In this document: piece by piece, positions 30,418 through 47,846 of the stretch
Layout: each line of letters starts with the position of its first letter
How positions within the stretch are numbered: position 1 is the stretch's first letter
DNA from: Escherichia coli
GTDB taxonomy: Bacteria > Pseudomonadota > Gammaproteobacteria > Enterobacterales > Enterobacteriaceae
Assembly (NCBI RefSeq): GCF_016903815.1
Contig: NZ_CP069973.1
Strand: one strand, 5' to 3'
Length of the DNA stretch: 64,000 bases
Notes under the pieces: model-generated
What the model was told of the DNA's origin: nothing
The model's input: the letters and a program-made list of their open reading frames with translations, nothing else
Database searches by the model: none
Made by a program: the position numbers and the translations under genes

Positions 30418-30433
30418 ATGTCTTTTTCCTGTA

Positions 30434-31696
30434 TCAGGCTTCCTGCATTGGGAACCGAAGTTTAATGGTTGTACCCATCCTGGGTTTGTTAGGGCTCATT
30501 ATTTCCAAGCCATAGCTCTCGCCAAATAACAACTTCAATCTATTTTTTATGTTGTTAATACCAATACTGCCTTTTTGCAATTTTTGGTCGCCTGATAAAA
30601 TGCGATTAATGGTATCTGGTGCGATGCCGTCGCCATTGTCAGTGACTTCAATAATCACGTTCAGGCCATCGTCCGTGGCACGGATCAGCAGATGACTATT
30701 GCTATCCCTTGGCTCCACTACGTAGTTAAAGAAGTTTTCCACCAGCGGTTGCAGGATCAAAAACGGGCAGACTACATCCAGATATTTTTCCGGGATATCG
30801 CACAGGTAATCGAAACGGTCTCTCATACGCACTTTTTGGATCGACATATAGTTGTTGACGTAATTTATTTCATTACGCAGAGTAATCAGGCCGTGACTAT
30901 TTTTACGTAACAAATAGCGCATCATGTCAGAGAAATCGTGCACCATTGTTTCGGTACGCTGCGCATCTTCAAGAAAAGCTAACCGGCCAATGGTATTTAA
31001 TACGTTAAATAAAAAGTGCGGATTTATCTGATAAGAGAGCGCTTTAAATTCAGCTTCATGTAGTGAGCGTTCTATCTCTACACGTTTTCTTAACTCATTA
31101 GCCAGTGCAAGATCCTTTTTACGAAGTTCGCGTTGGATATTATTGGTGTGCGCTTGTTCGACCAGATAAGACGATACGTGTAGTAACGTCGAGGCAGTAG
31201 ACTCAAAACGCTCATACGGCATGCGACGTGTATTCTGGTGCAAATTAATTAACCAAGGATTATCTTTCCAGACGTCATTATTATTCAGAATATAGGAAAT
31301 GCTCTGTTCTTTCTCTTCTTCGACTTTTACCTGACCGGAAATAAAAGCACCGAGATAATGATCGTTAATCATGATTGGGACAGCGAATTCGACAAAACCG
31401 CAGTGGCAGCGATAAACCACCGGTTTGCGAGCGTGCATCGCGGCACGGCCACCAGCGTTGTCGCTTTCATAACAGTGGTGCGCCAGTGTCGGGTTGAGAC
31501 GCGAACGCATGCAGAAGTCTGAAAAACCGCTGGGCTTAGTGACCGGGATACCATTCTCATCCACAACCACGAGCGCGATCATCATTGATTTTGAAAAGTT
31601 GTCCTGCAGGGTCTGAAGGCGTTTTACATCCAAAAACTCATTTAATTTGTATTTATTCTTCATACTTTCAGCCTGCATTTTTAAAAACATAATCAT
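30434..31696 (-). CDS. Sensor histidine kinase with PocR-like sensory domain; start may be a downstream Met (about 31663)
   Basis: His-kinase motifs ([13 protein letters not shown]) and HATPase region; N-terminal domain resembles PocR. Confidence 0.75.
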
Positions 31697-31965
31697 ATAT
31701 TTATAAATAATTTGTCACGAAAAAATTGAAATGGATCACAGCAACAAAAACAGCTCCGGCTCTGAAAGTAATGCTTCGGTTATTTGCAAGGGATACTCCT
31801 TTTCAAACCTTGCTGAACCAGTGCAGATACACAGGGAAACGTATACCAGAACTGCCACAATACAAACGCCAGTTACTGGCGATACGAATGGAATGACGAG
31901 GCAGTCTGTCAGAAAGCCCCACATGAACGATCACCACCTACATAGGAGGTGTTTTAAAATTGATC

Positions 31966-33769
31966 GAGTAGGAGGCGGGATCACTCCCGCCGTCCTCTCA
32001 CACCACCGTACGTGCGGTTCCGCATACGGCGGTTCATGTTAACTCTGGAACTGCCTCTACTGTTCCAGCAGTGATATCAGACCCTGCCTCCTGAACCATG
32101 CATTCTTTATCGCCTGATTCATATGGCTTGACCCTGAGTTCCACCATGGCCCGTGGTTGTTGTACGCAGAGATCATTGCCCTGTCCTTACTCAGTCCTGC
32201 TCTTTGCAGATTCTTTGCCCGGGTTCGCGGTCTCTTCCACTGCCGCTACAACAAGCAACGCAGTTTCCGTTTGATCCAGCCATCCAGCTCCTCCAGCACT
32301 CCTCTGACTTCCGTCAGCCTGAAGTAGCTTATCCATCCACACAGCACTGGTGTCAGAGCATTGATTGTCGCTTTCACTGATTTGCTCCGGTTTCCCGTCG
32401 TCAGACTGTGGACTTTCTCCTTCAGCCTGTTCACGCTCGTCAGGGCTATCTTCAGCTTCGCCTGTTTGTGCCATGTCACACTGTACCCGAGGAACTTCCG
32501 ATCCCACGGGCGCGCCACCGCGCTCTTCTTCTCATTCACCTTCAGTTTGTTCTCCACGAACGCCCTGATGTTCTTCAGCAGATGGTCGCCCGCTTTCCGG
32601 CTGCTTACGTAGATGTTGCAGTCGTCTGCGTAGCGGCAGAAGCTGTGTCCACGACGCTCTAGTTCTTTATCCAGTTCATCCAGCAGGATGTTCGACAGTA
32701 ACGGCGACAGTGGGCCGCCCTGCAGCATGCCCGCCTGCCGTTTCTCCCTTTGCCCGTCTTTAACCATTTCCACTTTCAGGTAGCGGCGTATCAGTCACAG
32801 CACCCGCCTGTCCTTTATCGTTCTGGCCAGACGCGTCATCAGGAGTCTGTGATCCACCCGGTCGAAGAACTTCTCCAGATCCATATCCACCACCCACCGT
32901 TTGCCACCCCGTATGTAACGCTGTGCCTGTTGCACCGCCTGCTGGATAAGCCTGTCCACCACCGTCGGGATGCCTGAGGTTCTCACGCCGCCATCCGGCT
33001 TCGGGATATCCATCCGGCGTATTGCCCGCGGCTGGTAGTTTCCGTCAATCAATGCCTGCCTGACGCTGCGCCAGTTCTTCTTCAGCCACGGTTTCAACTC
33101 CGCCACGCTGAGGTTATCCACCCCCGCCGTGCCTTTGTTTTCCAGCACGCGCTGATAAGCCAGCATCAGGTTTTCTCTCGTTATCACCGCTTCCATCGTC
33201 AGCGGCACTTCCGCTTTCGTTTGCCCACCCGCCGCCGTGCTGATTTCAGCGCCATCATGCAGCCCTGACGGATACTGTCCGTCTCCTCTGCCGCTGGTCG
33301 CAGTTGCCTGCGCTTGTGCTTCATTAATCATCATCGGGTTCGGATGTCCTAATCACAGTTAATCATGTTCGGCCCTTCATGCTGCCGGTTTTGCAGCACT
33401 ACTACGGCGTCGGCTGACTTCTGCCGCCCCATCCCGGCGCCTCACGGCGCCGGTAGCACACTGGCAGGGCGACAGATCTCCCGGGGTAATTCACGTGACT
33501 TTCCTGCTTATGCCTGTCGGCTTTACGTCACAGCGTTCCGTGTGAGTATCGGGCTTTGGTGATTTGTGCCACCTTACCCTGCTGCGCCGCCTTAACCGCT
33601 TCCTGTTCGTCAGGCCAGCATTTTGCATCCAGCTTCCTTCAGATTTCACCTCGCGATGAACACCCTTGCCTTCCGCTAACACTTCCCCTCACCGGGTGTG
33701 TGGAGGACTTTCACCTCTTAGTCGTTCTTCTGCCACCACAGTTGAAGAACAGCGCCAGTCACGGCGCAC
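31966..33769 (-). mobile_element. Degenerate group II intron (class C-like) inserted after a terminator hairpin
   Basis: 5' end GTGCGCC immediately after hairpin 33771..33810; domain V-like CCGTATGCGGAACCGCACGTACGG near 32000; disrupted RT ORF inside. Confidence 0.65.
32246..33334 (-). pseudogene. Group II intron reverse transcriptase, disrupted (in-frame stop, internal deletion, C-terminal truncation)
   Basis: Two abutting ORFs (179 and 175 aa) with RT motifs FCRYADDCNIY and GGPLSPLLSNILLDELD. Confidence 0.8.
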
Positions 33770-33770
33770 A

Positions 33771-33810
33771 TAACAAAAAGCCAGCAGGCAGACACTGCTG
33801 GCTTTTTGTT
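33771..33810 (-). terminator. Rho-independent terminator after the membrane-protein gene
   Basis: AAAAAGCCAGCAG...CTGCTGGCTTTTTGTT hairpin. Confidence 0.7.
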
Positions 33811-33819
33811 ATGGCGGGA

Positions 33820-34725
33820 TTAAAACAGGGGAACCAAGGTAAATAATCCAATGGTCGCCAACAGATTAATCATCGTGGTCATAATGGTGATGACCATCGC
33901 CGGCGGGTCAATATGTGTATCGCCGTGGATCAGGAAGATACGCGACATCAGTTCACCCAATATCGCGCAAATTATGCCAACGATAGCAGCCCAAATCAGG
34001 CTACCTGATGGCACCGCTACCAACGCGGCAGGCAGCGAAATATGATGTGACACCGGTACCTGAGTATTGAAATGCAGGAAAATCAGTGAGAACGCGGAAA
34101 TACCAAACGCCAGCAGCGCGCCGTTGCCGCCAAACTTCAGGCCTAAAAAGCCTGCCATCAAGCCAATACCCAAGCCCAGCACGGAAAGCTGCGGAATGCG
34201 GCTATGGTAAGGTATCCAGCACTTATCCTGCGGCGGATAGCAGTGACGAATTCCCTGCTCCGGTTTTCCAAACAGGCCAGTTTTACCGAAAACCAGACGC
34301 GAGACCACGCCAGAAATCACCACGGTTAGTGCCACGGTATCGGTCCAAGCATTGCCGGACGGGAAGGCCGGAATCTGGTTCAACCCCCAGGCGATGATGT
34401 AACCAACCGCCCCAAAAACCCCGCCTACCAGCAGCACATCGTAAGCCGCCAGACCGCTCAACCCGGCAGTGATATCACGCCCGGAACCCAGCTTGCCTTT
34501 CTTCGCTGCATACGCCGTCGCCGCAACCCCAGCGGCAAAGCCGCCGGTGTGCGGGCCAAACAGTCCAAACGGAAAAGTAATAAAGTCCGATGATGCTCCG
34601 GTAATAATTTGCACTACCGTCATGGCGATAACCAGAAGCCCAACGAATTCAAACGCCGCCAGCGCGCCAACAGCCGCACCAAATATGCCGCCGCCGAAGG
34701 CAACTACAATATCTAAGCTATTCAT
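33820..34725 (-). CDS. Integral membrane protein (putative substrate transporter of the locus)
   Basis: 301-aa highly hydrophobic, Gly/Ala-rich ORF. Confidence 0.6.
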   Translation of the reverse strand: MNSLDIVVAFGGGIFGAAVGALAAFEFVGLLVIAMTVVQIITGASSDFITFPFGLFGPHTGGFAAGVAATAYAAKKGKLGSGRDITAGLSGLAAYDVLLVGGVFGAVGYIIAWGLNQIPAFPSGNAWTDTVALTVVISGVVSRLVFGKTGLFGKPEQGIRHCYPPQDKCWIPYHSRIPQLSVLGLGIGLMAGFLGLKFGGNGALLAFGISAFSLIFLHFNTQVPVSHHISLPAALVAVPSGSLIWAAIVGIICAILGELMSRIFLIHGDTHIDPPAMVITIMTTMINLLATIGLFTLVPLF

Positions 34726-34861
34726 CTAGCTTACCTCTGTAATTAAATCAAATGACAATATAAGTAATGCAGATTGCTCTATATTTTTAAAATTGAAATA
34801 GTATTCATGCGTAACAAATAAACAAGTGCAGCATTTTTTCGCACTCTTATTACATCTTTTA

Positions 34862-35779
34862 TTAACCGCCGATATGGCAGTTAAAACCTAAGGATTCAAC
34901 CATTGCTTTTAACTCTGCCATTTGGGCTTCTTCGATACTTTTTGTATCGCCCATCGGATACTGGCGACCAAGCAGATTATATTTATTTTCACCGAAGCTG
35001 TGATAAGGCAATAAGTGAATGGTATCGACGTTCTGCATCAGGCGGGCGAACTCCGCAATATTATGGATTTCCTGCGAATTGTCATTCACTCCTGGGATCA
35101 CAGGAATACGCACAACCACTTTGGTTAAAAAGGAGATGCGCAGCAGATTCTCCAGAATCACTCTGTTATTCACGCCGGTGTTGCGCTCATGGATTTCCGG
35201 ATCGATGGCTTTAATATCGGTCAGAGCAAGATCGACATAGGGAAATACCTCATCAATCACCGCTTTGGTGGTGAAGCCGCTTGTTTCAATAGCGGTGTGC
35301 CAGCCTTTGGCTTTACAGGCTTTAAGCAACTCGCGGGCAAATTCCGGCTGCGCCAGCGGTTCACCACCGGACAGGGTAATCCCGCCGCCTGAACGCCGGT
35401 ATAAATTCTCTTCTTTTTCCAGTTCGCGCATCACTGCCGTTACCGACATACGCTTGCCCTTCATTTCCAGCGCACGGGTAGGGCAAATCTCAGTACATTT
35501 CCCACACTGAATACAGCGGTCGCGATTGATAAACCAGGCATTAGTAATGGAAAGAGCCTGTTGTGGGCAAGCATCAATACATTTTCCACAGCGGATGCAA
35601 TCATTCTTTTTAAATAATAACTCTGGGCTGTGACGTTGTGATTCAGGATTACTACACCATTTGCAGGACAGCGGGCAGCCTTTAAAAAAAGGAATGGTTC
35701 GAATGCCTGGACCATCATGCAAAGAATAGCGTTGAATATTAAATATGACGCCTTCGGTTTCGTATTCAACTTTATTCAT
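34862..35779 (-). CDS. Glycyl-radical enzyme activating enzyme (radical SAM, with ferredoxin-like insert)
   Basis: CPLSCKWCSNPE radical-SAM motif plus CIRCGKCIDACP and CIQCGKCTEICP clusters. Confidence 0.9.
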   Translation of the reverse strand: MNKVEYETEGVIFNIQRYSLHDGPGIRTIPFFKGCPLSCKWCSNPESQRHSPELLFKKNDCIRCGKCIDACPQQALSITNAWFINRDRCIQCGKCTEICPTRALEMKGKRMSVTAVMRELEKEENLYRRSGGGITLSGGEPLAQPEFARELLKACKAKGWHTAIETSGFTTKAVIDEVFPYVDLALTDIKAIDPEIHERNTGVNNRVILENLLRISFLTKVVVRIPVIPGVNDNSQEIHNIAEFARLMQNVDTIHLLPYHSFGENKYNLLGRQYPMGDTKSIEEAQMAELKAMVESLGFNCHIGG

Positions 35780-35887
35780 AACATCACTCTATATTTACCA
35801 GATGAATTACCTTTTCAGATAAAAGTAACAACCAGAAGTCGTGGAGAAAGTAACGGGCTATATATTGATACATAGCCCGTCTGGTAT

Positions 35888-38440
35888 TTACGACAGTTGT
35901 TGCTCAGTACGGCTGATTATGTCGTCCTGAACTTCTTTCGCTAAAACTACCCACTGGGCGCTATAGCCCGCAACGCGTACCACCAGATCCTGATGTTGCT
36001 CAGGATTTTTCTGGGCTTCGATCAAAGTGTTGCGGTCGATAACGTTAAATTGAACGTGCATCCCTTTCTTATCGAAGTAGTGACGTATCAGGCCGCTGAA
36101 GTTGCGCAGACCGTTCTCGCCAGCCAAAGAAGACGGCAGGAATTTCTGATTATAGAGCGTACCGTTGGAGGCGATAAAGTGATCCAGTTTGGCAACTGAG
36201 TTGGCTGCGGCGGTTGGGCCAAGGGTGTCTTTACCCTGACGTGGAGATACGCCATCCGCCAACGGCTCTTTCGCCAGACGGCCATCCGGCAGTGCGGCAA
36301 CGTCTTTACCAAACAGCACGTTCGCAGACACCGGATAGATACCAGCCTGGAACTGGCCACCGCGCGGGTTGGTATATTTCTCAACTTCCTGGCAGTAGAT
36401 CAGCGCACATTTACGCGCTACTAAATCCACGTCATCGATGTCGTTACCGAAGCACGGTGTGTTTTCCAGAATACGACGGATCTCCTCGTGACGGGACATA
36501 GTGCCGGATTGCACCGGTGCTGCACTGCCGGAAGTCAGCTGGCGATAAACTTCGTTTTTAATCGCTGCCGGATCCAGAGCGCCATGCTGTTCAATGATGC
36601 GTTTCACCACATCGTAGATATCCTGCTCGTTGAGCGAGGATTTCGCCGCTGGAGTGTGCGGGTTCGCACCCACCGGATAACCGAAGTTGGCGTCCAGTGC
36701 GCTTTTCAGTTCGCTCAAAGACAGTTTACGATCTTCGAATACCTGTTTCTGGATGGCATAGACGGAGTCGCCGGTATCGGCTACGCCGAATGCTTGCGGC
36801 CCAGTAAAGTTGTAAATCGCCCCGCCTTCCTGGAGAGATTTACCACGGCCGATACAGTCGTCGACCAGTGCTGATAGGAACGGCAGCGGGCAGCGTTCGC
36901 CGTGGGCAATATCCACGCTGTTACAGGCTTCAACCAGTTGATGAACGAAGTGCGCCATCTGTTTCTGGAACGCGGTGTAGAAGTCCTCCATGCTGGTGAA
37001 CTGAGTCAGTTCGCCAGTCACTGGGCCTAGCTGTTTATTGCCAACGCGACCGTTGTTCAGGGTGATTTCCAGCACTTTTGCAACGTTAAAGAACGCGGCG
37101 TCATGCCAGCCCTCGGTGCGATGCGGTGCCTGCGGCTCTACGCAGCCGATGATACAGTAATCACGCGCATCACGCAGCGAAATGCCACGGTTCTGCAGCG
37201 CCGGGATGATTACTTCATCGTTGTACATTGCCGGAACGCCCAGGCCCATACGCACCAGCTCGCAAGCGCGATACAGAAACTCATCCGGAGTACCCTGCCA
37301 TACGCGGATTGAGAAGGATGGCTGCGGCAGACGCACATGGGCAGTCGCTTCCATACACATGTAGCTCAGATCGTTAGTTGCGTCGCGACCGTCTTCTGTC
37401 TGGCCGCCACAGCACAGGTTCTGGAACACTGCGTAACCGGCAAACGCCTGGGCAGAGACTTCGTCACGCGTTTTGTTAATGTCGTTAAGCTTGATCCAGC
37501 AGCAATCCACCAGTTCCTGCGCGAATTCACGCGAGATAGATTTGTCCGACTCCAGATACGGGTACATATACTGGTCGAAACGCCCCGGGGAGATAGAATG
37601 ACCGCTGGATTCAATCTGTAACATGCTCTGAATAAACCAGAATGTCTGGCATGCTTCCCAGAATGTGGTAGCACCGTATTCCGGCACGCGAGTACAGTTT
37701 TGAGCAATCTGCTCCAGTTCGCGTTTACGGGTCGGATTGCTCTCCTGCTGCGCCAGACGGGATGCTTCTTCAGCGTAACGATGGGCGAAACGGATCGCTG
37801 CGTTATAACTGATCAGCACCGCATTATAGAACTGTTCTTTCTTTATATATCCTGGTTCAGTGCGATCTAATGATTCCAAGGCACGGCTAACTTCATTAAT
37901 GATACCACGGAAACCAATTTTCAGCACTTTACCGTAGTCAACACTGACATGACCGACGCCCCCGAAGAAGTAGTTACCAACAGTGAATACACCGCTCGCC
38001 ATACTCTCTTTAGTGCCTTCTGACATGTAAGATGCCGCCAGAGCACTGGTAGTTTTACCCGGCCAGTATTTAAATGCTTCATGAAGCTCCTGAGCAGTCT
38101 TTTTCGGGATAACAAACGGGTCGGCAATACGGTGTTCCATAGTCTCAAACTCTTTTTCCACCCAGTCGTAGGAGAACTCAGGGCAGATTTCAGTTGAGCG
38201 AGGATTAATAGTTACCGCTCCAACGATTAATTCGTCTGGGCGAATTGTTACCGGTAATTGGTTAAAGATTTTTTCCACCACTTTAGCACGACGCATAATC
38301 GCGGGCAGTTGTTCTGTTTCTTTATATGCTTCGGTTGCTAACACCGCGCGTTCTGATTCCACATACGGCTTCGCCGTCAGGATCATATTTCTCAGTCTTA
38401 CAACACGGTCTGTCGGATTAGAAAAGCCTTTCTCTAACAT
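35888..38440 (-). CDS. Glycyl radical enzyme (PFL-like), 850 aa, probable 1,2-propanediol dehydratase-type
   Basis: C-terminal glycine-radical motif RVAGYSAQWV and catalytic loop GCVEP; substrate is inferred from locus type. Confidence 0.85.
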   Translation of the reverse strand: MLEKGFSNPTDRVVRLRNMILTAKPYVESERAVLATEAYKETEQLPAIMRRAKVVEKIFNQLPVTIRPDELIVGAVTINPRSTEICPEFSYDWVEKEFETMEHRIADPFVIPKKTAQELHEAFKYWPGKTTSALAASYMSEGTKESMASGVFTVGNYFFGGVGHVSVDYGKVLKIGFRGIINEVSRALESLDRTEPGYIKKEQFYNAVLISYNAAIRFAHRYAEEASRLAQQESNPTRKRELEQIAQNCTRVPEYGATTFWEACQTFWFIQSMLQIESSGHSISPGRFDQYMYPYLESDKSISREFAQELVDCCWIKLNDINKTRDEVSAQAFAGYAVFQNLCCGGQTEDGRDATNDLSYMCMEATAHVRLPQPSFSIRVWQGTPDEFLYRACELVRMGLGVPAMYNDEVIIPALQNRGISLRDARDYCIIGCVEPQAPHRTEGWHDAAFFNVAKVLEITLNNGRVGNKQLGPVTGELTQFTSMEDFYTAFQKQMAHFVHQLVEACNSVDIAHGERCPLPFLSALVDDCIGRGKSLQEGGAIYNFTGPQAFGVADTGDSVYAIQKQVFEDRKLSLSELKSALDANFGYPVGANPHTPAAKSSLNEQDIYDVVKRIIEQHGALDPAAIKNEVYRQLTSGSAAPVQSGTMSRHEEIRRILENTPCFGNDIDDVDLVARKCALIYCQEVEKYTNPRGGQFQAGIYPVSANVLFGKDVAALPDGRLAKEPLADGVSPRQGKDTLGPTAAANSVAKLDHFIASNGTLYNQKFLPSSLAGENGLRNFSGLIRHYFDKKGMHVQFNVIDRNTLIEAQKNPEQHQDLVVRVAGYSAQWVVLAKEVQDDIISRTEQQLS

Positions 38441-38488
38441 ATAAAACTCCCGAATATATTTTGTTAACCTTGCGGAGATGCCAGGGTA

Positions 38489-39064
38489 TTAATGAATAAT
38501 GCTAGTGCCCATTTGAGTAATAAAGTGACGTAATATTGCTGGATGCCCCATCCAGGTAGTCGCGGTTATTAAATTACCATCCACAATGGCTTCATCATCT
38601 GCGGCAGTGACCCACTGGCCACCCGCCATTTCCACTTCCGGTTTTACCGTAAAATATCCCGTCAGTTTCCGGCCTTTTAATACCCCAGCAGCGGCCAGAA
38701 TTTGTGGGCCATGACAAATTGCAGCAACAGGTAATGTTAAATTCATCGCGTAATGCACGATATCCAATACTGACTTATTTAATCGCAAGTATTCCGATGA
38801 ACGCCCACCAGAAATATAAACACCACTATATTCCTGTAACCTTATGTCATCAAATGATGCAGTTAATCTAAAAAGATGTCCGGGTTTTTCGGTGTAGGTC
38901 TGATCACCTTCAAAATCATGAATCGCGGTTTTAATAAACTCGCCGGTACGTTTTCCCGGACACACTACATCCACTCTGAAACCTAACATGTTTAATGCCT
39001 GCCATGGCACCATGACTTCATAGTCTTCAGAGAAATCGCCTGTGATAAGTAATATCTTCTTCAT
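38489..39064 (-). CDS. DJ-1/PfpI-family protein
   Basis: Nucleophile-elbow motif AICHGPQIL; start at internal Met MKKILLITGD. Confidence 0.7.
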   Translation of the reverse strand: MKKILLITGDFSEDYEVMVPWQALNMLGFRVDVVCPGKRTGEFIKTAIHDFEGDQTYTEKPGHLFRLTASFDDIRLQEYSGVYISGGRSSEYLRLNKSVLDIVHYAMNLTLPVAAICHGPQILAAAGVLKGRKLTGYFTVKPEVEMAGGQWVTAADDEAIVDGNLITATTWMGHPAILRHFITQMGTSIIH

Positions 39065-39074
39065 AAGCGGACTC

Positions 39075-39374
39075 TCAAAACTGGTTATCGTCTTCCTCAA
39101 TGATTCGCATGGCTTCATGCACCGCCGCGACTTCGCCAAAAATGGCCAATGTGGTGATATGCTGAGGGCAACTGCCAAAGATTTCTGATACCACCACATT
39201 GGCGCTTTTACTGGCTACGTCGGCATAAAAATAGAGATCCGGAACCGGCAGTATTAACAAACCAATGGCGTCGATGCGAATCAAATCCAAACGCGAACGA
39301 AACTCCCCGGGCATACGCCGTTTCAACATAGCCAAAATATCCGGGGTCGGTGCGTTTATGATTCGTTTTTTCAT
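39075..39374 (-). CDS. EutS/PduU-type permuted BMC shell protein, GrpU-like, with GSCPQ motif
   Basis: Permuted BMC pattern similar to EutS; GxCPQ motif associated with Fe-S binding in GrpU. Confidence 0.7.
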   Translation of the reverse strand: MKKRIINAPTPDILAMLKRRMPGEFRSRLDLIRIDAIGLLILPVPDLYFYADVASKSANVVVSEIFGSCPQHITTLAIFGEVAAVHEAMRIIEEDDNQF

Positions 39375-39397
39375 CTTTAAGTCACCCTTCGCGATAG

Positions 39398-40915
39398 TTA
39401 GCGAATATTCAGCGCTTCAACCATTACACAGCGACGACGGCGTGCAAACGAACGCGCTGACGTAAGTCCCTCGCCGGTCGGTCCGGCAATCGTAAAGGTG
39501 GCATGCCCTTCACCGCCCACCCCCAGCCCTGCATAAGAGGGACCATTTTTAACAAAGATGGTGGTCTGGATCAGGCGCGCCATTTTGGTCAGCTTTTCGA
39601 CGTTGGTGGAGTGCATAACCGCGGTATGACGATTGCCGTGCTCCACTTTCACCGCCAGCTCAATGGCTTCATCAACATTGTCTACGCGCACCACCGGCAG
39701 GACCGGCATCATCAGCTCATGCACCACAAACGGATGTGTTTTCTCAGCCTCAATTAAGATGACTTTGATATCGTCGCCAACCTGGATTCCCAGTTGTTGC
39801 AGGATATAGCGCGCATCTTTGCCGACAAAGGCGGTATTCGGCCCAGTGCCTTTTTCATTAAGCACCAACGATTGCAGTTGTTGACTTAACTTCTTATCGC
39901 ACAACAGATAGGCACCGCTTTTCTTCATGCAGTGAATCAGATAGTCCGCTACCTGGTTCACAACAATCACCTCTTTTTCCGCCACGCACGGCAGGTTGTT
40001 GTCGAAGCTACAGCCCTTAATGATGTCGCGGGCTGCTTTTTCGATATCCGCCGTTTCATCTACCACAGCTGGCGGGTTACCTGCGCCTGCACCAATCGCT
40101 TTTTTACCTGATGACATCACGGTTTTCACGATGGCTGGACCGCCAGTCGCTACCAGCATGTTGATACGTGGGTCGTTGATCAGGACGTTGGTATTGTCGA
40201 TGGACGGTTTGGTCACCGTTACCACCATGTTAGCCGGTGCGCCCAACTGGGCAAGCTTGTTGTTGATCAGCTCAACCGCGTACAGCGACACTTTGCGCGA
40301 GCGCGGATGTGGACTGAACACCACAGTGTTGCCTGCCGCCAGCATGCCTATGCTGTTGTTGATAATGGTTTCGGTCGGGTTAGTCGTTGGTGTAATCGAA
40401 CCAATCACTCCGAACGCAGAGTATTCGATCAACGTTAAACCCCCGTCTCCGGAAACCGCGCTGGTGGTCAGATCTTCGATACCTGGCGTTTTCAGCGCTG
40501 CGACGCGGTTTTTGATCAGTTTGTCCTCGTAATTCCCCATGCCGGTCTCTTCCACCGCCATACGGGAAAGGGCACACAGCACATCTTCCTGCAGGAAGAC
40601 ATCGCGAATGCCATTGATAAACGAGGCGCGGTCTTGCATAGAACAGTGGCGATACTGCACTTGTGCCAAGACGGCGGCGGAAATCGCCTCATCCATGGTA
40701 TCGAATGCTCCAGTGCTAGCATTCGCTACCTTCGCTACCTGAGAGATCGCACTGGCGTCGCGCACGGAAGAGTGCTGCGCCAACGCCTTAGCGACAATTT
40801 CATCCAACCCGTCGACCCGCGCTGCTTCTGACGTGGCGGGAGCTTCATCCGGTGTTGCTTTGGTGAATTTGCTCAGAATGGTCGAGACAGCCTGAGCGAT
40901 TTCAATATCATTCAT
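39398..40915 (-). CDS. CoA-acylating aldehyde dehydrogenase (PduP/EutE family)
   Basis: 505-aa aldehyde dehydrogenase-like sequence with N-terminal extension typical of encapsulation peptides. Confidence 0.85.
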   Translation of the reverse strand: MNDIEIAQAVSTILSKFTKATPDEAPATSEAARVDGLDEIVAKALAQHSSVRDASAISQVAKVANASTGAFDTMDEAISAAVLAQVQYRHCSMQDRASFINGIRDVFLQEDVLCALSRMAVEETGMGNYEDKLIKNRVAALKTPGIEDLTTSAVSGDGGLTLIEYSAFGVIGSITPTTNPTETIINNSIGMLAAGNTVVFSPHPRSRKVSLYAVELINNKLAQLGAPANMVVTVTKPSIDNTNVLINDPRINMLVATGGPAIVKTVMSSGKKAIGAGAGNPPAVVDETADIEKAARDIIKGCSFDNNLPCVAEKEVIVVNQVADYLIHCMKKSGAYLLCDKKLSQQLQSLVLNEKGTGPNTAFVGKDARYILQQLGIQVGDDIKVILIEAEKTHPFVVHELMMPVLPVVRVDNVDEAIELAVKVEHGNRHTAVMHSTNVEKLTKMARLIQTTIFVKNGPSYAGLGVGGEGHATFTIAGPTGEGLTSARSFARRRRCVMVEALNIR

Positions 40916-40975
40916 CTTTAAATTCCTTACTACTCTTCATCTGCCGACCGCGCCGCGTGCATCGTCATCAGATGC

Positions 40976-41761
40976 TTAGATATATGGCGTCGTGGTGGAT
41001 TTAATTTCCACCGGATCTAACGTGGAGAGCAGTTGTAGACCGACTTCACGCGCGGCAATCACCGCCTGACGTACTGCACCGGAATCACCGGAGAAGGTGA
41101 AGATCACTTCGTTACTAAAGCTGGTGCCTTGCGACGGGCTGGCATAACCCACCGGGTCAATCACGGCGGATTTCGCCGCAGCGTCGGCAATCACCAGGCC
41201 AATCGCCGCAGGCGAGGCACAGGTCATCCCGAAGGATTTACCAATCGGCGCACCCAGCGCTTTATTCAGCGCGTAGCTGGCACGAGCGGTGTACTGGAAT
41301 TCAAGATGTCCGGCTGACGAGCCATAAACGTCACCCATGGTGCGTTCAATTTCAGACAGCGCCACTTCAACCGCACGCCTGACGTCGGAAACATCAGACG
41401 CACCGAAAATAATTAAGCAACCGTGTCCGCCACCTCCTTCGGTATCGCGGGCCAGCTCAATAGAAATAATTTCGCTGTTGGTTGCTTTAATCGCTTCGTC
41501 AGCCGCAAAAATTTGCGGGCCTGCGCCAGTACGTGCGCCAAGAATACCGATAGAGCGATATTTCTTGTCGATATTCATGACTTCATGCAATTGATTATCA
41601 ACATTGGCAATCACTAGGCCGATAGTGTGGCCCAACGCAGTGCCGACAAATTCCGTAATACCGCAACCAGCGAAATTCGCTGCTGTTTTAGCTTCCGGTG
41701 AGATATCGGTTTGTTTATTCATTACGTCAGATATAATCTGCTCAACAAGATTATCTCTCAT
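40976..41761 (-). CDS. Tandem-BMC-domain shell protein (BMC-T, PduB-like)
   Basis: 261-aa protein with PduB-like N-terminus MRDNLVEQIISDV. Confidence 0.75.
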   Translation of the reverse strand: MRDNLVEQIISDVMNKQTDISPEAKTAANFAGCGITEFVGTALGHTIGLVIANVDNQLHEVMNIDKKYRSIGILGARTGAGPQIFAADEAIKATNSEIISIELARDTEGGGGHGCLIIFGASDVSDVRRAVEVALSEIERTMGDVYGSSAGHLEFQYTARASYALNKALGAPIGKSFGMTCASPAAIGLVIADAAAKSAVIDPVGYASPSQGTSFSNEVIFTFSGDSGAVRQAVIAAREVGLQLLSTLDPVEIKSTTTPYI

Positions 41762-41782
41762 GATCAGTATCCTTTATTGTTA

Positions 41783-42064
41783 TTAACCGATAGCCTTCGG
41801 TAGAATTTTTTCCACCTCAATGTGTGGGCGTGGAATAACATGTACGGAGACCAGTTCTCCCACTTTACTCGCAGCAGCGGAGCCCGCATCTGTCGCGGCT
41901 TTCACTGCGCCAACGTCGCCGCGAACCATCACAGTCACCAAGCCGGAGCCGATTTTTTCATAACCCACTAGGGTCACGTTGGCAGATTTCACCATGGTAT
42001 CTGCAGCTTCAATTGCAGAAACCAGACCTTTCGTTTCAACCATTCCTAATGCTTCTTGTTGCAT
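41783..42064 (-). CDS. BMC-H shell protein (PduA/PduJ-like)
   Basis: [45 protein letters not shown] canonical BMC domain; start at internal Met. Confidence 0.9.
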
Positions 42065-42348
42065 AACGACCTCAATATTTCCGATAGAAAGAAAACGTGC
42101 ACAGAGGAATAGCAATCTACGGATTCACCCATGTGCATTAATTATTTAATTATCATAATGCTAAGGTTATTCAGACAAAATGTTTTGCGCGTCAGTGGGA
42201 CTATCTTGCTTTTGCATTCCCGCAATTGACAATAAAATCCACCCGAGGTTTGTAATAAAAGATCTGCGTTTAAACTTCCTTGCAAAATAGCCCCGCTCTG
42301 AATAGCGATCATAATTACTGTTAAAACTGTCGTATTTTTGCCAATTAG

Positions 42349-43545
42349 TTATGCCGTGCGGGCAATCTCCGCTGCATCTATAGCAATCATTTTTTCTTCA
42401 TTGGTTGGGATGACCGCAATCTTCGTGGTGTCGGTTTTAGAAATCAGTCCGCTACGTCCGCCGAACAGCTGCTGGTTACGTTCTTTATCCAGTTCCAATC
42501 CCAGCGCCTGAAGGCGTTGCACGGTAAGTTCTCGAATTAACGCCGAGTTTTCGCCAATTCCACCGGTGAAAATCAGCGCATCGAAGCGTTTAAGCGAGGT
42601 CACGTGGCCGCCGATATGTCGTGCGAGACGATGTACTAACACGTCGATGGCTAACGCTGCCCGTTCGTGGCCCTCATCACGCGCCTGCTGAAGGGTGCGG
42701 CAATCGCTGGATAAGCCGGAAATCCCCATTAGGCCGGACTGGTTATTGAGCATTTTGTACAGCGTGTCGAATGTTTGACCTGTGCGTTTCGCCAGATATG
42801 CGACGACACCAAAATCAAGATCCCCGCAGCGCGTGCCCATTACCAGCCCTTCCAGCGGGGTCATACCCATTGAGGTGTCAATGCTCGTGCCGTTTTGCAC
42901 CGCACATAGCGATGAACCGTTGCCCAAGTGGGCAATCACGATGCCATGATCCGCCGGGTCGAGATCTAGTGATGCAAGCGCTTCTGCGGCAATATAGCGG
43001 TGAGATGTTCCGTGAAAGCCGTAACGTCGCACCATATAATCTTGCTGGAACTCCAGCGGGATCGCATAGGTGTAAGCAGCCGGAGACAAGGTCTGGTGGA
43101 ACGCAGTATCGAACACCGCAATATGCGGCAACGCGGGCAACAGAGCCCGAGCCGCTTCAATACCAATCAGGTTGGCAGGGTTATGCAAAGGGGCCAGCAC
43201 CGACAGCGCGCGGACTTTTTCGATCACATCATCGGTAACCAGTACTGATCTTTTGAAGTCGCTGCCGCCATGAGCCACGCGGTGCCCAACGGCGTTGATG
43301 GCTTCCAACAGTTGCTGTTCGTCGAGCTTCGCGAAGAGCACTTTGAGCGCATGCTGATGGCTGGCGTCATCCAGCGCGACAGTGGATTTATGGCCGTCTC
43401 GGTCTTTAAACGTTATGACAGCATGATCAATACCCAGTCGTTCCGCTAGGCCCGACAGCAACGGCTGATCTGCATCCTGAGGAATGACGGAGAATTTCAT
43501 TGATGAGGAACCACAATTAATCACTAATACACAAGCTAAAGACAT
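42349..43545 (-). CDS. Acetate/propionate kinase (AckA/PduW family)
   Basis: VLVINCGSSSMKFSV N-terminal motif; start codon at 43543..43545. Confidence 0.85.
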   Translation of the reverse strand: MSLACVLVINCGSSSMKFSVIPQDADQPLLSGLAERLGIDHAVITFKDRDGHKSTVALDDASHQHALKVLFAKLDEQQLLEAINAVGHRVAHGGSDFKRSVLVTDDVIEKVRALSVLAPLHNPANLIGIEAARALLPALPHIAVFDTAFHQTLSPAAYTYAIPLEFQQDYMVRRYGFHGTSHRYIAAEALASLDLDPADHGIVIAHLGNGSSLCAVQNGTSIDTSMGMTPLEGLVMGTRCGDLDFGVVAYLAKRTGQTFDTLYKMLNNQSGLMGISGLSSDCRTLQQARDEGHERAALAIDVLVHRLARHIGGHVTSLKRFDALIFTGGIGENSALIRELTVQRLQALGLELDKERNQQLFGGRSGLISKTDTTKIAVIPTNEEKMIAIDAAEIARTA

Positions 43546-43573
43546 GATGCCCCCTGAAATGGACTGCAAAAAA

Positions 43574-44071
43574 TTAACGGGTTGTTGTGAGGGGATAACG
43601 CAGAACGCTAAACTGCGCCATCGCCTGGCGGGCGATGAGCATATCTTCCTCAACACTGCCGCCGCTGATGCCGATGCCGCCTAGTAAGCGCCTGCCCGAC
43701 CAGCAGGGAAAACCACCGCCGAAGCAGCAGATATCTTTTTCTTTCTCAAGGCCGTACAAATCACCACCCGGCTGTACCAGCGTTGCCAGTTCGTGAGTTG
43801 GCATTTTGAGAGCTACCGCGGTCCAGGCCTTTTGTGGTGCCAAGGTATGGCTGACCAGCAGGGCGTTATCCATGCTGAAGAAAAAACGCTGCTGACCGCA
43901 GGCATCCACTAGGCTAAAAACGATCGATACATTGCTGGACTGTGCCATTTCCCGGGCCAACTTTGCCAGCAGTTCACTGTCCTCCAGGCTCAGCGACATC
44001 CGGAGTTCCGGTAACTGCGTGGCAATAGCCTCATTAATCCAGTTGTCGAGTGAAGCCTCATTCGCAGACAT
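43574..44071 (-). CDS. GlcG/HbpS-like (DUF336, PduO C-terminal domain-like) protein
   Basis: 165-aa ORF with GGIGISGG motif. Confidence 0.6.
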   Translation of the reverse strand: MSANEASLDNWINEAIATQLPELRMSLSLEDSELLAKLAREMAQSSNVSIVFSLVDACGQQRFFFSMDNALLVSHTLAPQKAWTAVALKMPTHELATLVQPGGDLYGLEKEKDICCFGGGFPCWSGRRLLGGIGISGGSVEEDMLIARQAMAQFSVLRYPLTTTR

Positions 44072-44098
44072 AAGTATTCCTCAGCGTACGCGCCGCTA

Positions 44099-44368
44099 TT
44101 AACCGTTAAGTTCGAGCGTGTCGACGATACCCACCACGGCAGCGTCAATCACCGAGTGATCTTTGTTGTTGCTCATACGCGCCGAACTGCCGGTGGTGAT
44201 GATCACAATCTCTCCATTGCCCGCGCCGACAGTATCAACTGCCACCTGGGCATGGACAGTCGGCTGATAGTTTTCATCGAGCCGCGCCACTATCAGCAGT
44301 TTTGAGCCATTCAGCGAGGCGTGTTTGGTGGTGGAAACCAATGCGCCAGTAACTTTAGCGAGGTACAT
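44099..44368 (-). CDS. BMC vertex protein (BMC-P, EutN/PduN/CcmL family)
   Basis: MYLAKVTGALVSTTKHASLNGSKLLIV... matches the EutN/PduN pattern. Confidence 0.85.
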   Translation of the reverse strand: MYLAKVTGALVSTTKHASLNGSKLLIVARLDENYQPTVHAQVAVDTVGAGNGEIVIITTGSSARMSNNKDHSVIDAAVVGIVDTLELNG

Positions 44369-44379
44369 ATTTCCTCCGG

Positions 44380-45105
44380 TTAACCATGGATAACAGTGAG
44401 ATTACGCCGCTGGATTTCATCTCTGGCAGCAGGGGTAATCAGCGTGTCGCTCTCAATGCGCAGCACTGTGCCAATGGTCAGTAGGCGGATATCGCTCTGG
44501 GTGATTAAACGTTTTTTACCGGCTACTGTCAGGGTGGATTGGCTTCCTTGCACCGACTTGACATGGGCTGCACGTTTACCGAAAAGCGTAATGCCATAGC
44601 TCTCTAGGACCTGAGCGTAACCTTCCAGACAAGACAGCAGTGGCATCGGTAATTCGCTATCGACGCATTGTTGATGCAGCGTGGCGATAATCTGTTTACG
44701 GTGCTGTAACGCCTGAAATACAGTTTCACAGGCCAGATTATCGCGAATGCCCAGCGCAATTTTGCTCATGCTGTTGACAGAGAGCGCAGGCAGATAGAGC
44801 ACCTCATAGTGAGGCGGCGATCTGTCAAATCCAGCACGAGAACCACGCTGAATTAGCGCATCCATGCAGACAGATTTCAGCGCCGACTGGCTGGCGCTGT
44901 GAGAAAAATTTACCCACAACTGATAGCCCGCCAGCTCAAGCGCCTCAAGGCAGTTCAGCGTTTCCGGCAGCGAGGAGATATCCTCACCAGTCACCACTAC
45001 GCAGACATTTTTCTGCGCGACGGATTGTGCCAACACTTCAGCGATGACCCGGTCCAGCAGTTGCGATAAGGTTTGATTGTCCATTGATTTACCCCTGGTC
45101 CGCAT
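44380..45105 (-). CDS. Microcompartment-locus protein of unrecognised family (241 aa); alternative start at 45084
   Basis: ORF inside the operon between the eutJ-like and vertex genes; no motif recognised. Confidence 0.55.
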   Translation of the reverse strand: MRTRGKSMDNQTLSQLLDRVIAEVLAQSVAQKNVCVVVTGEDISSLPETLNCLEALELAGYQLWVNFSHSASQSALKSVCMDALIQRGSRAGFDRSPPHYEVLYLPALSVNSMSKIALGIRDNLACETVFQALQHRKQIIATLHQQCVDSELPMPLLSCLEGYAQVLESYGITLFGKRAAHVKSVQGSQSTLTVAGKKRLITQSDIRLLTIGTVLRIESDTLITPAARDEIQRRNLTVIHG

Positions 45106-45909
45106 TCATGGCGATGCCTAATGGTGTGACCAATAGTGGCTCTGCCGAAGGAATCACATTTTTACCGGTTTGTTTACTGAACACGTTGGCAAACTGGCTG
45201 AAGCTGCTCGCGCCACCTACCAAATAAATATTTTTTACCTGCTGGGTAGCGAACCATCCCGACACCAAGCTGGCCATTTTCTGGGCCACCGGTAGCACCA
45301 GGGTAAAGACCTGCGCTTCCTGCCCGTTTTTTTTCATTTCTTCCGCCTCGGCATAAGGCAAGCCCAGCGCGCCAGCGATCACCAACTTCATATGGCTTCC
45401 ACCGGTGGGCTCATCGGCACTGAACGTCACTTTACCGCTTTTCAAAATGCTCATGCCGGTGGTGCCTCCTCCGACATCCACCACCGCCCCGTTTTTAATA
45501 TTCAGCGCGCTGGCAGCGGCTACCGGTTCATCTAGTACTTGGGTCACGATAAAACCCGCCAACTCCACTACGTTGACGATCACTTTTGTGTTGCCTTCAG
45601 AGATCCCCGGTGGGACTGCGATCGCCGCGCGCTCCAGCGTGCAGCCCTGTTTCTGTTCAAGAATTTGTTTGAGACGTGCTACTACCCGGCTGGCGGTCAG
45701 GTAATCCACCACCACGCCGTCTTTCACCACATTGGAGGGATACATTACCCCTGCCACCGGCTGGTTATCTTCATCCAGCACCACGATTGCGATATTGGCG
45801 GTACCGAGATCCCCCCCACCTTCAACGCGCCGGAGTAGGGCCGACATTCGCCGCTGTCAATCAGCGCGGCCAATTCGTGAAATCGGCAGTTTTCGGGGCT
45901 GTTAGCCAT
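45089..45909 (-). CDS. EutJ-like actin-fold (Hsp70-type) protein with an apparent frameshift at a 7-nt C run (45811..45817)
   Basis: ORF from 45847 starts at the DLGT phosphate-binding motif; an ATG at 45909 in another frame encodes ...ALKVGG, which would precede DLGT after a 1-nt shift. Confidence 0.6.
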
Positions 45910-46588
45910 GGCGCGCAGCCTGTTTTATGCCGCGAACGGTATCGCCATTACGCAGACCGACGCCGTTAGCTTCTTCCATATCAATATGCAGTTCCAGCAC
46001 TGCATCCGCCGTGACGCGTACCACTACATGGCTGAGCACACCACCGCGCGGACCGTTTGTTTGCACATCGATTTCCATTCCGTCATGCAGGCCGTGCAAT
46101 TCGGCTTCTTCGGGCGAGATATGGATATGGCGCCAGGCGACAATCATGCCGTTGTGTTTCACCACCCGCCCTTTCGGACCGATGATTTCAATGCCCGGCG
46201 AATCCAGCAGATCCCCCGACATGCGCACCGGAGCTTTAGTGCCCAGCGCAAAGCCGTCGGCCACAGAGATTTCCACCTGCGTGGCATTACGCAGTGGCCC
46301 TAACACGCGCACTTTGTTGAGCTCGCCTTTTGGCCCGCGCAGCGTCACCATCTCTTCGGCGGCATACTGACCGGGCTGTTTCAACGCTTTAGAACGGGTT
46401 AGCGTAGAGCCGTAGCCAAACAGAATGTCCATATCTTCACGGCACAGATGAACATGGCGGTTGGACACGCCCACCGGAATATTCAGCGCGACGGGCGCGG
46501 CAGCAGGCGCTGCCGTTTTTTTACTGGTGGCAAGTTCCTGCAAAATTTGTTGGGTAATCCACTCGGCTTGTTGTTCGGTGTAATTCAT
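45902..46588 (-). CDS. Phosphotransacylase, PduL type
   Basis: GVSNRHVHL ... ALKQPGQYAAEE ... AWRHIHISPEEA motifs. Confidence 0.85.
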   Translation of the reverse strand: MNYTEQQAEWITQQILQELATSKKTAAPAAAPVALNIPVGVSNRHVHLCREDMDILFGYGSTLTRSKALKQPGQYAAEEMVTLRGPKGELNKVRVLGPLRNATQVEISVADGFALGTKAPVRMSGDLLDSPGIEIIGPKGRVVKHNGMIVAWRHIHISPEEAELHGLHDGMEIDVQTNGPRGGVLSHVVVRVTADAVLELHIDMEEANGVGLRNGDTVRGIKQAARHG

Positions 46589-46727
46589 AATGGGTACGAC
46601 CTGATTATTGGGTTATCTTATGGGTAATGGGCGTCTAACGATCAGGATAGGGAGTAACGACGCCCGGTTTTTGTTTATCAGCAGGACTTTTTTGACTGCT
46701 TCACGGAGGCTGAACAAAGTTATCCAG

Positions 46728-47846
46728 CTAGCCGGTAATCAGGTCGATCAACCCTTCGACATCATGCGTCGTCACCTGCCGCGGGTTCGACGCGGTACAA
46801 CCGTCGGCCAGCGTCGAATTCACCAGTGCGCTGCGCAACTCGATGATTTTTGCACGGTCGATACCCAGTTCGCTGAGAGTGACGGGGATGCAGAAATGGC
46901 GATTGATCTGGCGGATCTCCTGAGTCATCAGCGCGATGGCCTGCTCCGGTACCGCATGGTCAATGCCTATGATTTGCGCGCAACGGTGATAGCGATCGCG
47001 GGTTTCAGTGCTGGCCCGTTTGCTGTTGAAGTCGATGACAATCGGCAGCAGCATGGCGTTAATTTTGCCATGAGGAATATGCAGCATCCCGCCGATGGCG
47101 TGTGCCATGCCGTGTACCAACCCCAGCCCGGCGGAGTTAAATGCCATGCCTGCCATACAGGAGGCATTGTGCATGTGGGTGCGCGCCGCAATGTCTTTTT
47201 CGTCGTTAAACACCTGCGGCAGATAGCGCCAGGTCAACGCGATGGCTTTTTCCGCCAGCGCATCGCTAAAGTCATTTGAGCCAGTAGAGACAAAGGCTTC
47301 AATGGCATGGGTCAGCACGTCCATGCCGGTATCTACCGCGACATGACGCGGCGCGGTTAACACTAGGTTAGGATCGAGAATGGCGATTTCCGGCACCAGT
47401 TGCCCGGAGATCAACGGATATTTGCGGCCATTTTGCGGATCAGAGATGATCGCGTAGGACGTCACTTCAGAGCCGGATCCGCTGGTTGTGGGAATAGCAA
47501 TGAGATCGATTTGATGATCTCCAAAATACTCTTCCAATGTGACTTTAATTCCTTTCGCAGCGTCCAGCGACGAGCCGCCGCCGAGGGCGATAATAACGTC
47601 GGGCTTAAAGGCTTTAAAACGCGCCGCGCCGGAAGTCAGAATATCAATATCTGGATCCGGAGTAACCTCGCCGAAAATGCATACCGATGCCTCAGGCATA
47701 TGGCTTATTAAATAACGAGTTTTACCTGATGACATCATAAAATCATCGGTGACAATACCGACTCGTTTATTATTAAATTGGCATAGAGAGGTTATTGCCT
47801 CTTCACCAAAATAAATTTTGGGGCACGAAAAATAATAGCGGGCCAT
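46728..47846 (-). CDS. Iron-containing alcohol dehydrogenase (PduQ/EutG-like), first gene of the operon
   Basis: GGGSSLDAAK and His-rich metal site (HGMAHAIGGMLHIPHG). Confidence 0.85.
   Translation of the reverse strand: MARYYFSCPKIYFGEEAITSLCQFNNKRVGIVTDDFMMSSGKTRYLISHMPEASVCIFGEVTPDPDIDILTSGAARFKAFKPDVIIALGGGSSLDAAKGIKVTLEEYFGDHQIDLIAIPTTSGSGSEVTSYAIISDPQNGRKYPLISGQLVPEIAILDPNLVLTAPRHVAVDTGMDVLTHAIEAFVSTGSNDFSDALAEKAIALTWRYLPQVFNDEKDIAARTHMHNASCMAGMAFNSAGLGLVHGMAHAIGGMLHIPHGKINAMLLPIVIDFNSKRASTETRDRYHRCAQIIGIDHAVPEQAIALMTQEIRQINRHFCIPVTLSELGIDRAKIIELRSALVNSTLADGCTASNPRQVTTHDVEGLIDLITG

Follow-up and report, generated by a model that had tools for sequence, protein, structure and literature searches.

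GrpL, a protein encoded within the grp microcompartment operon of Escherichia coli, is best read from its sequence as an accessory enzyme that would scavenge reactive carbonyls or repair the damage caused by them. It carries an intact set of DJ-1/PfpI catalytic residues, and in those GRM3 loci that possess its gene, this always lies just before the gene for the glycyl radical diol dehydratase (GRE), in four bacterial lineages, an arrangement which is newly described here. The assignment of GrpL to a DJ-1D-like subfamily and the facultative distribution of grpL are likewise new additions to what is known of this gene. More specifically, GrpL is tentatively proposed to be an accessory DJ-1/PfpI cysteine enzyme, most likely a glutathione-independent scavenger of small reactive carbonyls of the glyoxalase III type, a reading which is given somewhat less than an even chance.

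The grpL gene and the grp locus

The features listed below lie in the window, this being the whole stretch of 64,000 nucleotides of E. coli DNA that was analysed.

27492..47846, minus strand: whole grp locus, grpA to grpS (RefSeq on the identical region of E. coli ATCC 11775; Pfam/NCBIfam)
39075..39374, minus strand: grpK, GrpU-type Fe-S shell protein, 99 aa (PDB 4olp match; RefSeq grpK)
39065..39074, minus strand: 10-nt spacer from the grpK stop to the grpL start (sequence)
38489..39064, minus strand: grpL CDS, 191 aa, DJ-1/PfpI protein of the PfpI/YhbO/DJ-1D class (ORF, Pfam, TIGR01382, RefSeq)
39017..39019, minus strand: Glu16 codon (EDYE16VMVP aligned with EDYEV(M/K)VP of Arabidopsis DJ-1D)
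38792..38794, minus strand: Glu91 codon (HMMER alignment of GGRSSE with GGRAPE of PH1704, Glu74)
38711..38716, minus strand: codons of Cys117 (38714-38716) and His118 (38711-38713) in the AICHGP nucleophile elbow (sequence)
35888..38440, minus strand: grpM, glycyl radical diol dehydratase, 850 aa (Pfam PFL-like and Gly_radical; PDB matches)

The ORF of grpL begins with an ATG start codon and its translation opens with MKKILLITGDFSEDYEVMVP. A longer ORF of 236 aa, beginning at 39199, was dropped as its start lies within grpK in another frame and all homologues begin with MKKIL. RefSeq places a gene at exactly 38489..39064, namely grpL, with the product name "propanediol utilization system protease GrpL" (WP_000722279.1). 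The location given in the original prediction, between a GRE gene and a gene for a GrpU-like shell protein, was confirmed. On the upstream side grpL is separated by 10 nt from grpK, residues 1-99 of whose product match the GrpU of Pectobacterium (PDB 4olp, E 1.4e-48). On the downstream side grpM follows after 48 nt, the best solved relatives of its product being B12-independent glycerol and diol dehydratases. A GAGAG sequence just 5' of grpL, which overlaps the stop codon of grpK, represents a weak ribosome-binding site. As the genes lie on the same strand and a promoter would not fit within the 10-nt spacer, grpL is probably co-transcribed with the operon.

The grp locus is the glycyl-radical, B12-independent 1,2-propanediol microcompartment of E. 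coli, uropathogenic strains being among its carriers. At the DNA level the grp region is 100% identical to that of many E. coli chromosomes, and grpL is carried by 538 of the 5426 complete E. coli genomes. The microcompartment of uropathogenic E. coli CFT073 was the subject of Lundin et al. 2020, as cited in PMC11724981 and PMC13210347, the former of which states, with reference to Lundin, that 1,2-propanediol induces the grp operon via GrpP and GrpQ. The locus appears to fit the GrpU-containing GRM3b type of the Kerfeld classification, judging from PMC6325248. Among the ancillary genes of GRM3, Axen, Erbilgin and Kerfeld 2014 listed "a peptidase", the role of which in the microcompartment they called unclear (PMC4207490), so that the presence of grpL in such operons was already known. 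It should be noted, then, that grpL is not a new gene: it already has a name and an annotation, and its locus has been studied genetically, which the original prediction had not recognised. Reportedly, eight of the 19 grp genes are required for growth on 1,2-propanediol, and the 2020 abstract from Lundin and colleagues is said to name the shell genes grpE, grpH and grpI and the regulators grpP and grpQ, not grpL.

Family assignment and catalytic residues

Membership of the DJ-1/PfpI family, as originally predicted, was borne out by a match to the Pfam profile PF01965 (DJ-1_PfpI; 142 bits against a cut-off of 26.6, E 1.9e-41), in which residues 2-183 of GrpL correspond to profile positions 1-164 of 165. 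Among the NCBIfam models, GrpL scored above the cut-off of TIGR01382, the DJ-1/PfpI/YhbO deglycase/protease subfamily (152.9 bits against 139.05). It scored below the equivalog cut-offs of TIGR01383 (DJ-1/YajL-type glyoxalase III; 35.3 against 131.25 bits), NF003168 (Hsp31/HchA glyoxalase III; 26.2 against 365 bits) and NF040823 (deglycase PfpI; 90.9 against 330 bits), and these scores place it outside the glyoxalase III families of the DJ-1/YajL and Hsp31 types.

The closest solved structures to GrpL were three entries for DJ-1D of Arabidopsis (PDB 4ofw, 3uk7 and 4ogg, E ~1e-121). By BLASTP, GrpL is 54.8% identical to the C-terminal domain of DJ-1D, 48.7% to its N-terminal domain and 34.4% to PH1704 of Pyrococcus, the sequence used for the last agreeing with the HMMER alignment to 1g2i. 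The fold of GrpL can be regarded as settled, a structure of approximately 55% identity having been solved. Each DJ-1D domain aligns with GrpL from residues 2-3 to 188-189 (~187 residues) with a single gap of one residue, and an insert of approximately 15 residues at GrpL positions 32-46 is common to GrpL and DJ-1D and absent from PH1704. By these alignments, GrpL and each half of plant DJ-1D are members of one widespread 191-aa subfamily.

The only characterised member of this subfamily met in these searches was Arabidopsis DJ-1D itself. Of the glyoxalase III enzymes of Arabidopsis, AtDJ-1D is reported to be the most active (PMC5859077). Its kcat on phenylglyoxal is 0.692 per s, and its pocket is narrower, compared with human DJ-1 (PMC10127264). 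Literature searches returned no tested activity for GrpL or any bacterial member of the subfamily, and searches combining microcompartment with DJ-1, PfpI or glyoxalase returned nothing relevant. The suggestion that GrpL could act as a glyoxalase, also part of the original prediction, thus fared in two ways: it gains weight from having the glyoxalase III AtDJ-1D as the best solved and characterised relative of GrpL, but it receives no help from the NCBIfam models, GrpL falling below every equivalog cut-off for glyoxalase III or deglycase.

The AICHGP nucleophile elbow which had been noted is intact, reading A115-I-C117-H118-G-P120 from the codons. An alignment check for a Cys/His/Glu triad had been set beforehand as a refuting test, and it did not refute the prediction: Glu16, Glu91, Cys117 and His118 show no variation across the 81 homologues taken from the loci (L001 to L081), PH1704 and the two domains of Arabidopsis DJ-1D. 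The same four residues were invariant in 119 of the 121 closest database proteins, with the remaining two showing a gap at position 16 and probably being fragments. Cys117-His118 aligned with the Cys-His pair of both DJ-1D domains and with Cys100-His101 of PH1704. The cysteine aligned to Cys117 is given as a modified residue (X) in PDB 4ogg, reportedly a hemithioacetal adduct (Choi et al. 2014). By alignment, Glu91 of GrpL is the equivalent of Glu74 of PH1704 and the putative third triad residue. In the PfpI class this glutamate comes from the neighbouring subunit, a geometry known from PH1704. Glu16 is presumably the equivalent of Glu18 of human DJ-1, the acid/base beside the cysteine in glyoxalase chemistry. 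The same residues of GrpL are compatible with a PfpI-type peptidase as well.

A true PfpI-type cysteine peptidase could help to turn over damaged (e.g., oxygen-cleaved) GRE or to regulate the organelle, and this is considered a very doubtful role for GrpL. Equivalents of the triad (Cys117, His118, Glu91) are present, PH1704 or "protease I" is a clear homologue, the RefSeq product name is "protease", and the authors who listed the GRM3 peptidase suggested a regulatory role for it (Axen et al. 2014; PMC4207490). However, the product name is a family label for which no underlying test was found in the literature searches, and GrpL shares 55% identity with DJ-1D against 34% with PH1704 and possesses the DJ-1D-type insert. 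The pocket of DJ-1D has also been described as narrow, which suits small molecules (PMC10127264).

Genomic context, phylogeny and distribution of grpL

To place GrpL in its wider context, the 80 loci closest to it were collected with one genome per species, and each was searched with all 19 Grp proteins. Twelve GRM3-type loci were obtained, consisting of the RefSeq counterpart of the window (L001) and 11 loci from the scan, with shell genes in all 12. The 11 were from Rouxiella, Vibrio salinus, Budvicia (two), Rhizobium, Cohaesibacter, Breoghania, an unclassified Proteobacteria MAG, Caproiciproducens, a Clostridium MAG and a Lachnospiraceae MAG. The gene order of the unclassified Proteobacteria MAG locus was as in the alpha-proteobacterial loci. 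In every one of the 12 the GRE gene directly follows the DJ-1 gene, with 57-260 bp separating the two, while the order of the other genes varies. This adjacency was found in Enterobacterales, Vibrio, alpha-proteobacteria and Clostridia. The grpL-GRE pair stands first in the operon in alpha-proteobacteria and Clostridia and mid-operon, after grpK, in Enterobacterales. The locus of Rhodospirillum rubrum, which was reached independently via its GRE, shows the same pair.

A further six loci were from Lachnospiraceae, Eubacterium and Anaerobutyricum hallii (L011, L016, L018, L020, L029 and L073). Four of these (L018, L020, L029 and L073) possess a cluster of genes for GRE, activase, MetK, a histidine kinase and a response regulator, with the DJ-1 gene located 1.3-3.9 kb downstream of the GRE/activase cluster on the same strand. 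The gene just before the DJ-1 gene is a DUF4125 gene in both L018 and L020, and L016 has its DJ-1 gene 2.2 kb upstream of GRE. No BMC shell genes were found in these six stretches, which extend to ~16 kb at most, with L029 ending at the GRE side and L011 at a contig end. Four short Lachnospiraceae or Eubacterium contigs were too short for their context to be judged. Approximately 58 of the 80 scan loci, mainly of Bacteroidota and Burkholderiales, have no GRE nearby, the DJ-1 gene being stand-alone. No conserved operon partners were detected in these beyond genus-level synteny, and no neighbour was shared across phyla.

The proximity of the gene to GRE could also point to a protein that performs no metabolic catalysis, namely a redox- or stress-sensing holdase or covalent chaperone like YajL/Hsp31 that guards the oxygen-sensitive GRE and its activase. 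The adjoining position of grpL and GRE would agree with this, as would the presence of the DJ-1 gene near the GRE/activase/MetK/two-component cluster of the shell-less Lachnospiraceae loci, and other members of the DJ-1 superfamily have been reported as chaperones (PMC5859077). The invariance of the whole catalytic set, Glu16 included, argues instead for catalysis, and such a chaperone is held to be the least probable of the roles weighed here.

A neighbour-joining tree placed the GRE-linked copies, together with one Anaerovibrio gene, in a clade recovered in 350 of 500 bootstraps (70%), and the 12 tight GRM copies grouped in 321 of 500. The GRE-linked GrpL clade is thus moderately supported. 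Within the tree, proteobacterial GrpL clusters with clostridial GrpL and not with other proteobacterial homologues. This grouping of GRE-linked copies across phyla suggests that gene and locus move together. The clade is marked by an aromatic residue (Y/F) at position 83 and an aliphatic residue (I/L) at position 177, a signature seen in 108 of the 121 closest proteins aligned. It was considered as a sign of new chemistry and set aside as such, as it looks like a compensated swap in core packing: position 83 changes from small to aromatic and position 177 from aromatic to aliphatic, so that one gains an aromatic ring where the other loses one.

The grpL gene is under strong purifying selection, with a dN/dS of ~0.06 and a dN of 0.11 between E. 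coli and Rouxiella, at a dS near saturation. In this comparison the dN of GrpL is below that of GrpJ, GrpN, GrpA and GrpB, and by the same measure its constraint is tighter than that of the aldehyde dehydrogenase, activase, alcohol dehydrogenase and phosphotransacylase.

Sampling was also conducted in the reverse direction, using the contigs of GrpM homologues of 76-90% identity, which yielded six GRM3 loci. Only that of R. rubrum carries grpL; the gene was absent from the five others, namely those of Rhodopseudomonas palustris BisB18, Vibrio natriegens, Lonepinella koalarum, Erwinia persicina and Buttiauxella. The R. palustris BisB18 locus is reportedly a biochemically characterised GRM3. In Buttiauxella, GrpM is 90% identical to that of E. 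coli, yet the locus is without grpL. In the four gamma-proteobacterial loci that lack it, grpK directly abuts grpM, and no remnants of grpL were detected in any of the five grpL-less loci (tblastn, E<10, no low-complexity filter). With neither gene nor remnant in five of the six loci sampled, grpL is dispensable for the organelle. GrpL is therefore a facultative accessory, not a core component, of GRM3 loci. Two genes of V. natriegens were considered and rejected: a DJ-1_PfpI gene located 2.7 kb downstream of the activase gene belongs to an unrelated FtrA/GbdR-like subfamily and is not GrpL, and a neighbouring ORF with a weak "Glyoxalase" match (PF00903) gave no NCBIfam match and did not recur in the other loci.

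This distribution raises the matter of whether grpL is simply a passenger, that is, a housekeeping DJ-1 gene which was captured once beside GRE and has since been inherited with the locus with no pathway-specific role. Its subfamily occurs as a stand-alone gene in most of the loci scanned, and its loss from many GRM3 loci has left no visible scar. Against this, its adjacency to GRE was kept in four lineages despite heavy rearrangement of the locus, and it is under greater constraint than several of the core enzymes. On balance a passenger gene is thought quite improbable.

Another candidate role is the repair of aldehyde adducts, in which GrpL would hydrolyse hemithioacetals or hemiaminals arising from propionaldehyde or lactaldehyde on the thiols and amines of proteins or on CoA, with the GrpM diol dehydratase as its client. 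The order of grpL followed by grpM is the sole context of the subfamily to be conserved across phyla, the GRE-linked copies form a clade of their own with the 83/177 signature, and the family is annotated as deglycase/protease. The first step, attack of the cysteine on a carbonyl adduct, would also be the same as that of a glyoxalase III. Adduct repair is nonetheless judged unlikely, given that the deglycase activity of DJ-1 is disputed, with kinetics favouring glyoxalase activity on free methylglyoxal (PMC10127264). Moreover, the signature resembles core packing more than chemistry and grpL is missing from most of the GRM3 loci sampled.

With regard to localisation, the median length of the homologues is 191 aa for both GRM-linked and unlinked copies, and this equality suggests that no targeting peptide has been added to those of microcompartments. 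Neither the lengths nor the end-to-end alignment with DJ-1D (residues 2 to 188/189) revealed an extension at the termini of GrpL that could serve as an encapsulation peptide. GrpL is hence probably cytosolic or loosely attached to GRE, and not a targeted enzyme of the lumen; its encapsulation by piggy-backing on GRE is possible.

Proposed role and comparison with known systems

As a glyoxalase III-type scavenger, the activity which we infer for GrpL, the protein would use the thiolate of Cys117 to attack the aldehyde carbon of a 2-oxoaldehyde, giving a hemithioacetal. Glu16 and His118 would then shuttle a proton to produce an enzyme thioester, and hydrolysis of this thioester by water would release a 2-hydroxy acid. 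If co-transcribed with the diol dehydratase, GrpL would be made at times of high aldehyde flux and could limit carbonyl damage.

The substrate is the least secure part of this proposal. We know of no step in the canonical route, from 1,2-propanediol to propionaldehyde and on to propionyl-CoA or propanol, that yields a 2-oxoaldehyde. A link to by-products of the methylglyoxal, lactaldehyde or acrolein type is speculation. It should also be noted that E. coli is already equipped with GloA/B, HchA, YhbO and YajL. Of the original prediction, the detoxification of methylglyoxal-like by-products of the pathway is unsupported: no result pointed to such a by-product, and five of the six GRM3 loci sampled via their GRE manage without the gene. 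Any effect of GrpL is likely to be modest, the gene being optional in related loci.

A narrower version of the proposal is that the GrpL clade represents a DJ-1 enzyme dedicated to the GRE diol dehydratase, clearing one particular toxic side product or adduct that arises in radical diol dehydration, and this is held to be rather improbable. Targets could include, for example, a 2-hydroxy or 2-oxo aldehyde produced when a substrate radical is intercepted, or an adduct of an aldehyde with the catalytic cysteine. What suggests such an enzyme is the adjacency to GRE from Proteobacteria to Clostridia, the proximity to GRE, activase and MetK where no shell genes are nearby, and the clade's own signature. 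If true, GrpL would be the first protein of the DJ-1 family with a defined client enzyme.

Approximately one in ten E. coli, uropathogenic strains among them, possess the Grp microcompartment, a system in which several genes are still without a demonstrated function. Were GrpL indeed a carbonyl scavenger, it would mean that the shell leaves aldehyde toxicity partly unsolved and that the operon adds a chemical clean-up enzyme, which would be useful knowledge for the engineering of microcompartments.

In comparison with known systems, the GrpL of CFT073 (Lundin et al. 2020, J Bacteriol 202:e00017-20; WP_000722279.1) is the same gene with the same neighbours, grpK and grpM, and nothing differs. 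Arabidopsis DJ-1D shares with GrpL the EDYEV, GGRxxEY and ICHG motifs and the insert absent in PfpI, but it is eukaryotic and has two domains in tandem, GrpL having a single one. Enterobacterial GrpL is also distinguished by F138 and T-T-W-M (169-172), which replace the otherwise near-invariant P138 and P169-A-W-P172. PH1704 (PDB 1g2i) and YhbO of E. coli (PDB 1oi4) resemble GrpL in their TIGR01382 class, Cys-His elbow and the glutamate of GGRxPE, and differ from it in having no insert at the position of GrpL residues 32-46, the identity of GrpL to PH1704 being only 34%. More distant are Hsp31 (HchA) and YajL of E. coli and human DJ-1, which have in common with GrpL the superfamily fold, the nucleophilic cysteine, the adjacent glutamate and the chemistry proposed for it, with human DJ-1 matching it at an E of only 5e-4. 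The GRM3 "peptidase" of Axen 2014 is the same class of gene in the same type of locus, and its subfamily can now be given as DJ-1D-like rather than generic peptidase. As the nearest tested relative of GrpL is a glyoxalase III, the label of "protease" is probably misleading.

Putative mobile-element features within and around the grp locus

The region of the grp locus, the glycyl-radical 1,2-propanediol microcompartment operon, was found to contain a number of ORFs other than those for the enzymes and the shell, located both inside the operon and on either side of it:

24510-24845 (-) and 53070-54343 (+): ORF pair sharing a start sequence, with the first ~100 residues identical
32246-33334 (-): two adjoining ORFs of 175 aa and 179 aa between grpO and grpP, to which RefSeq gives the product names "reverse transcriptase domain-containing protein" and "maturase"

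The 175-aa and 179-aa ORFs appear to represent a disrupted reverse transcriptase of a group II intron, located as an insertion within the grp locus. Of the pair of ORFs with a shared start, one is a truncated copy and the other has a 301-aa ORF after it, and a truncated transposase is annotated by RefSeq near the left copy (24510-24845). From a reading of their translations, both look like insertion-sequence transposase genes. These transposase-like copies flank the grp region, one on each side, together with pseudogene debris comprising an RND efflux permease fragment and TetR and AraC fragments. This arrangement is consistent with a genomic island.

GrpO, GrpM and start sites in the locus

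No matches to the 301-aa membrane protein named "permease GrpO" (grpO, 33820-34725, minus strand) were obtained in either Pfam or NCBIfam profile searches. A grpO homologue was found in alpha-proteobacterial GRM3 loci (L007, L009, L013 and L015), where it is divergently transcribed from the pair formed by the DJ-1 and glycyl radical enzyme (GRE) genes and is located ~800-900 bp upstream of this pair.

The glycyl radical diol dehydratase GrpM (35888-38440) was matched in two stretches (1661 bits) by the PDB entries for a "Glycyl radical protein" of 816 aa (9rco to 9rcr), from which an internal insertion of ~60 residues in GrpM is apparently missing. These entries may represent recent structural work on GrpM or a very close enzyme; no publication behind them was traced in a literature search.

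Start sites within the locus were assigned based on annotation only. The mechanical ORF of grpG (42349-43656) is 435 aa compared to 398 aa in RefSeq, that of grpS (27492-28133) is 213 aa compared to 181 aa, and the listed start codon of grpR is TTG.

GrpL and related loci in other bacteria

Two sites in the DJ-1/PfpI protein GrpL were compared among its homologues. At position 138, proline is invariant in the 58 homologues without a nearby GRE gene and in the 10 Lachnospiraceae-type copies, and has been replaced by phenylalanine in E. coli and Rouxiella. Residues 169-172 are likewise invariant as P-A-W-P in those 58 and 10 copies and have changed to T-T-W-M or T-N-W-M in E. coli and Rouxiella. 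GrpL of Budvicia and Vibrio shows intermediate states.

Within the GRM3 locus of Vibrio natriegens (L083), which is without grpL, one further ORF was noted:

L083 9721-10101: 126-aa ORF directly after the activase gene, with a weak match to Pfam "Glyoxalase" (PF00903)

This ORF had no match in NCBIfam and no counterpart was seen in the other grpL-less loci.

Loci with a GrpM-like GRE (~62% identity) were also identified in gut Lachnospiraceae and Eubacterium (L018, from Anaerobutyricum hallii DSM 3353, L020, L029, L073 and L016). Genes for an activase, MetK, a histidine kinase and a response regulator accompany the GRE in these loci, and a DJ-1 gene of the GrpL clade lies close by. L018 additionally carries a cupin gene, and the gene immediately ahead of the DJ-1 gene in both L018 and L020 encodes a DUF4125 protein. 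The stretches examined of the five loci yielded no BMC shell genes, and this gene set may represent the GRM3 enzyme module in a form that lacks the shell.
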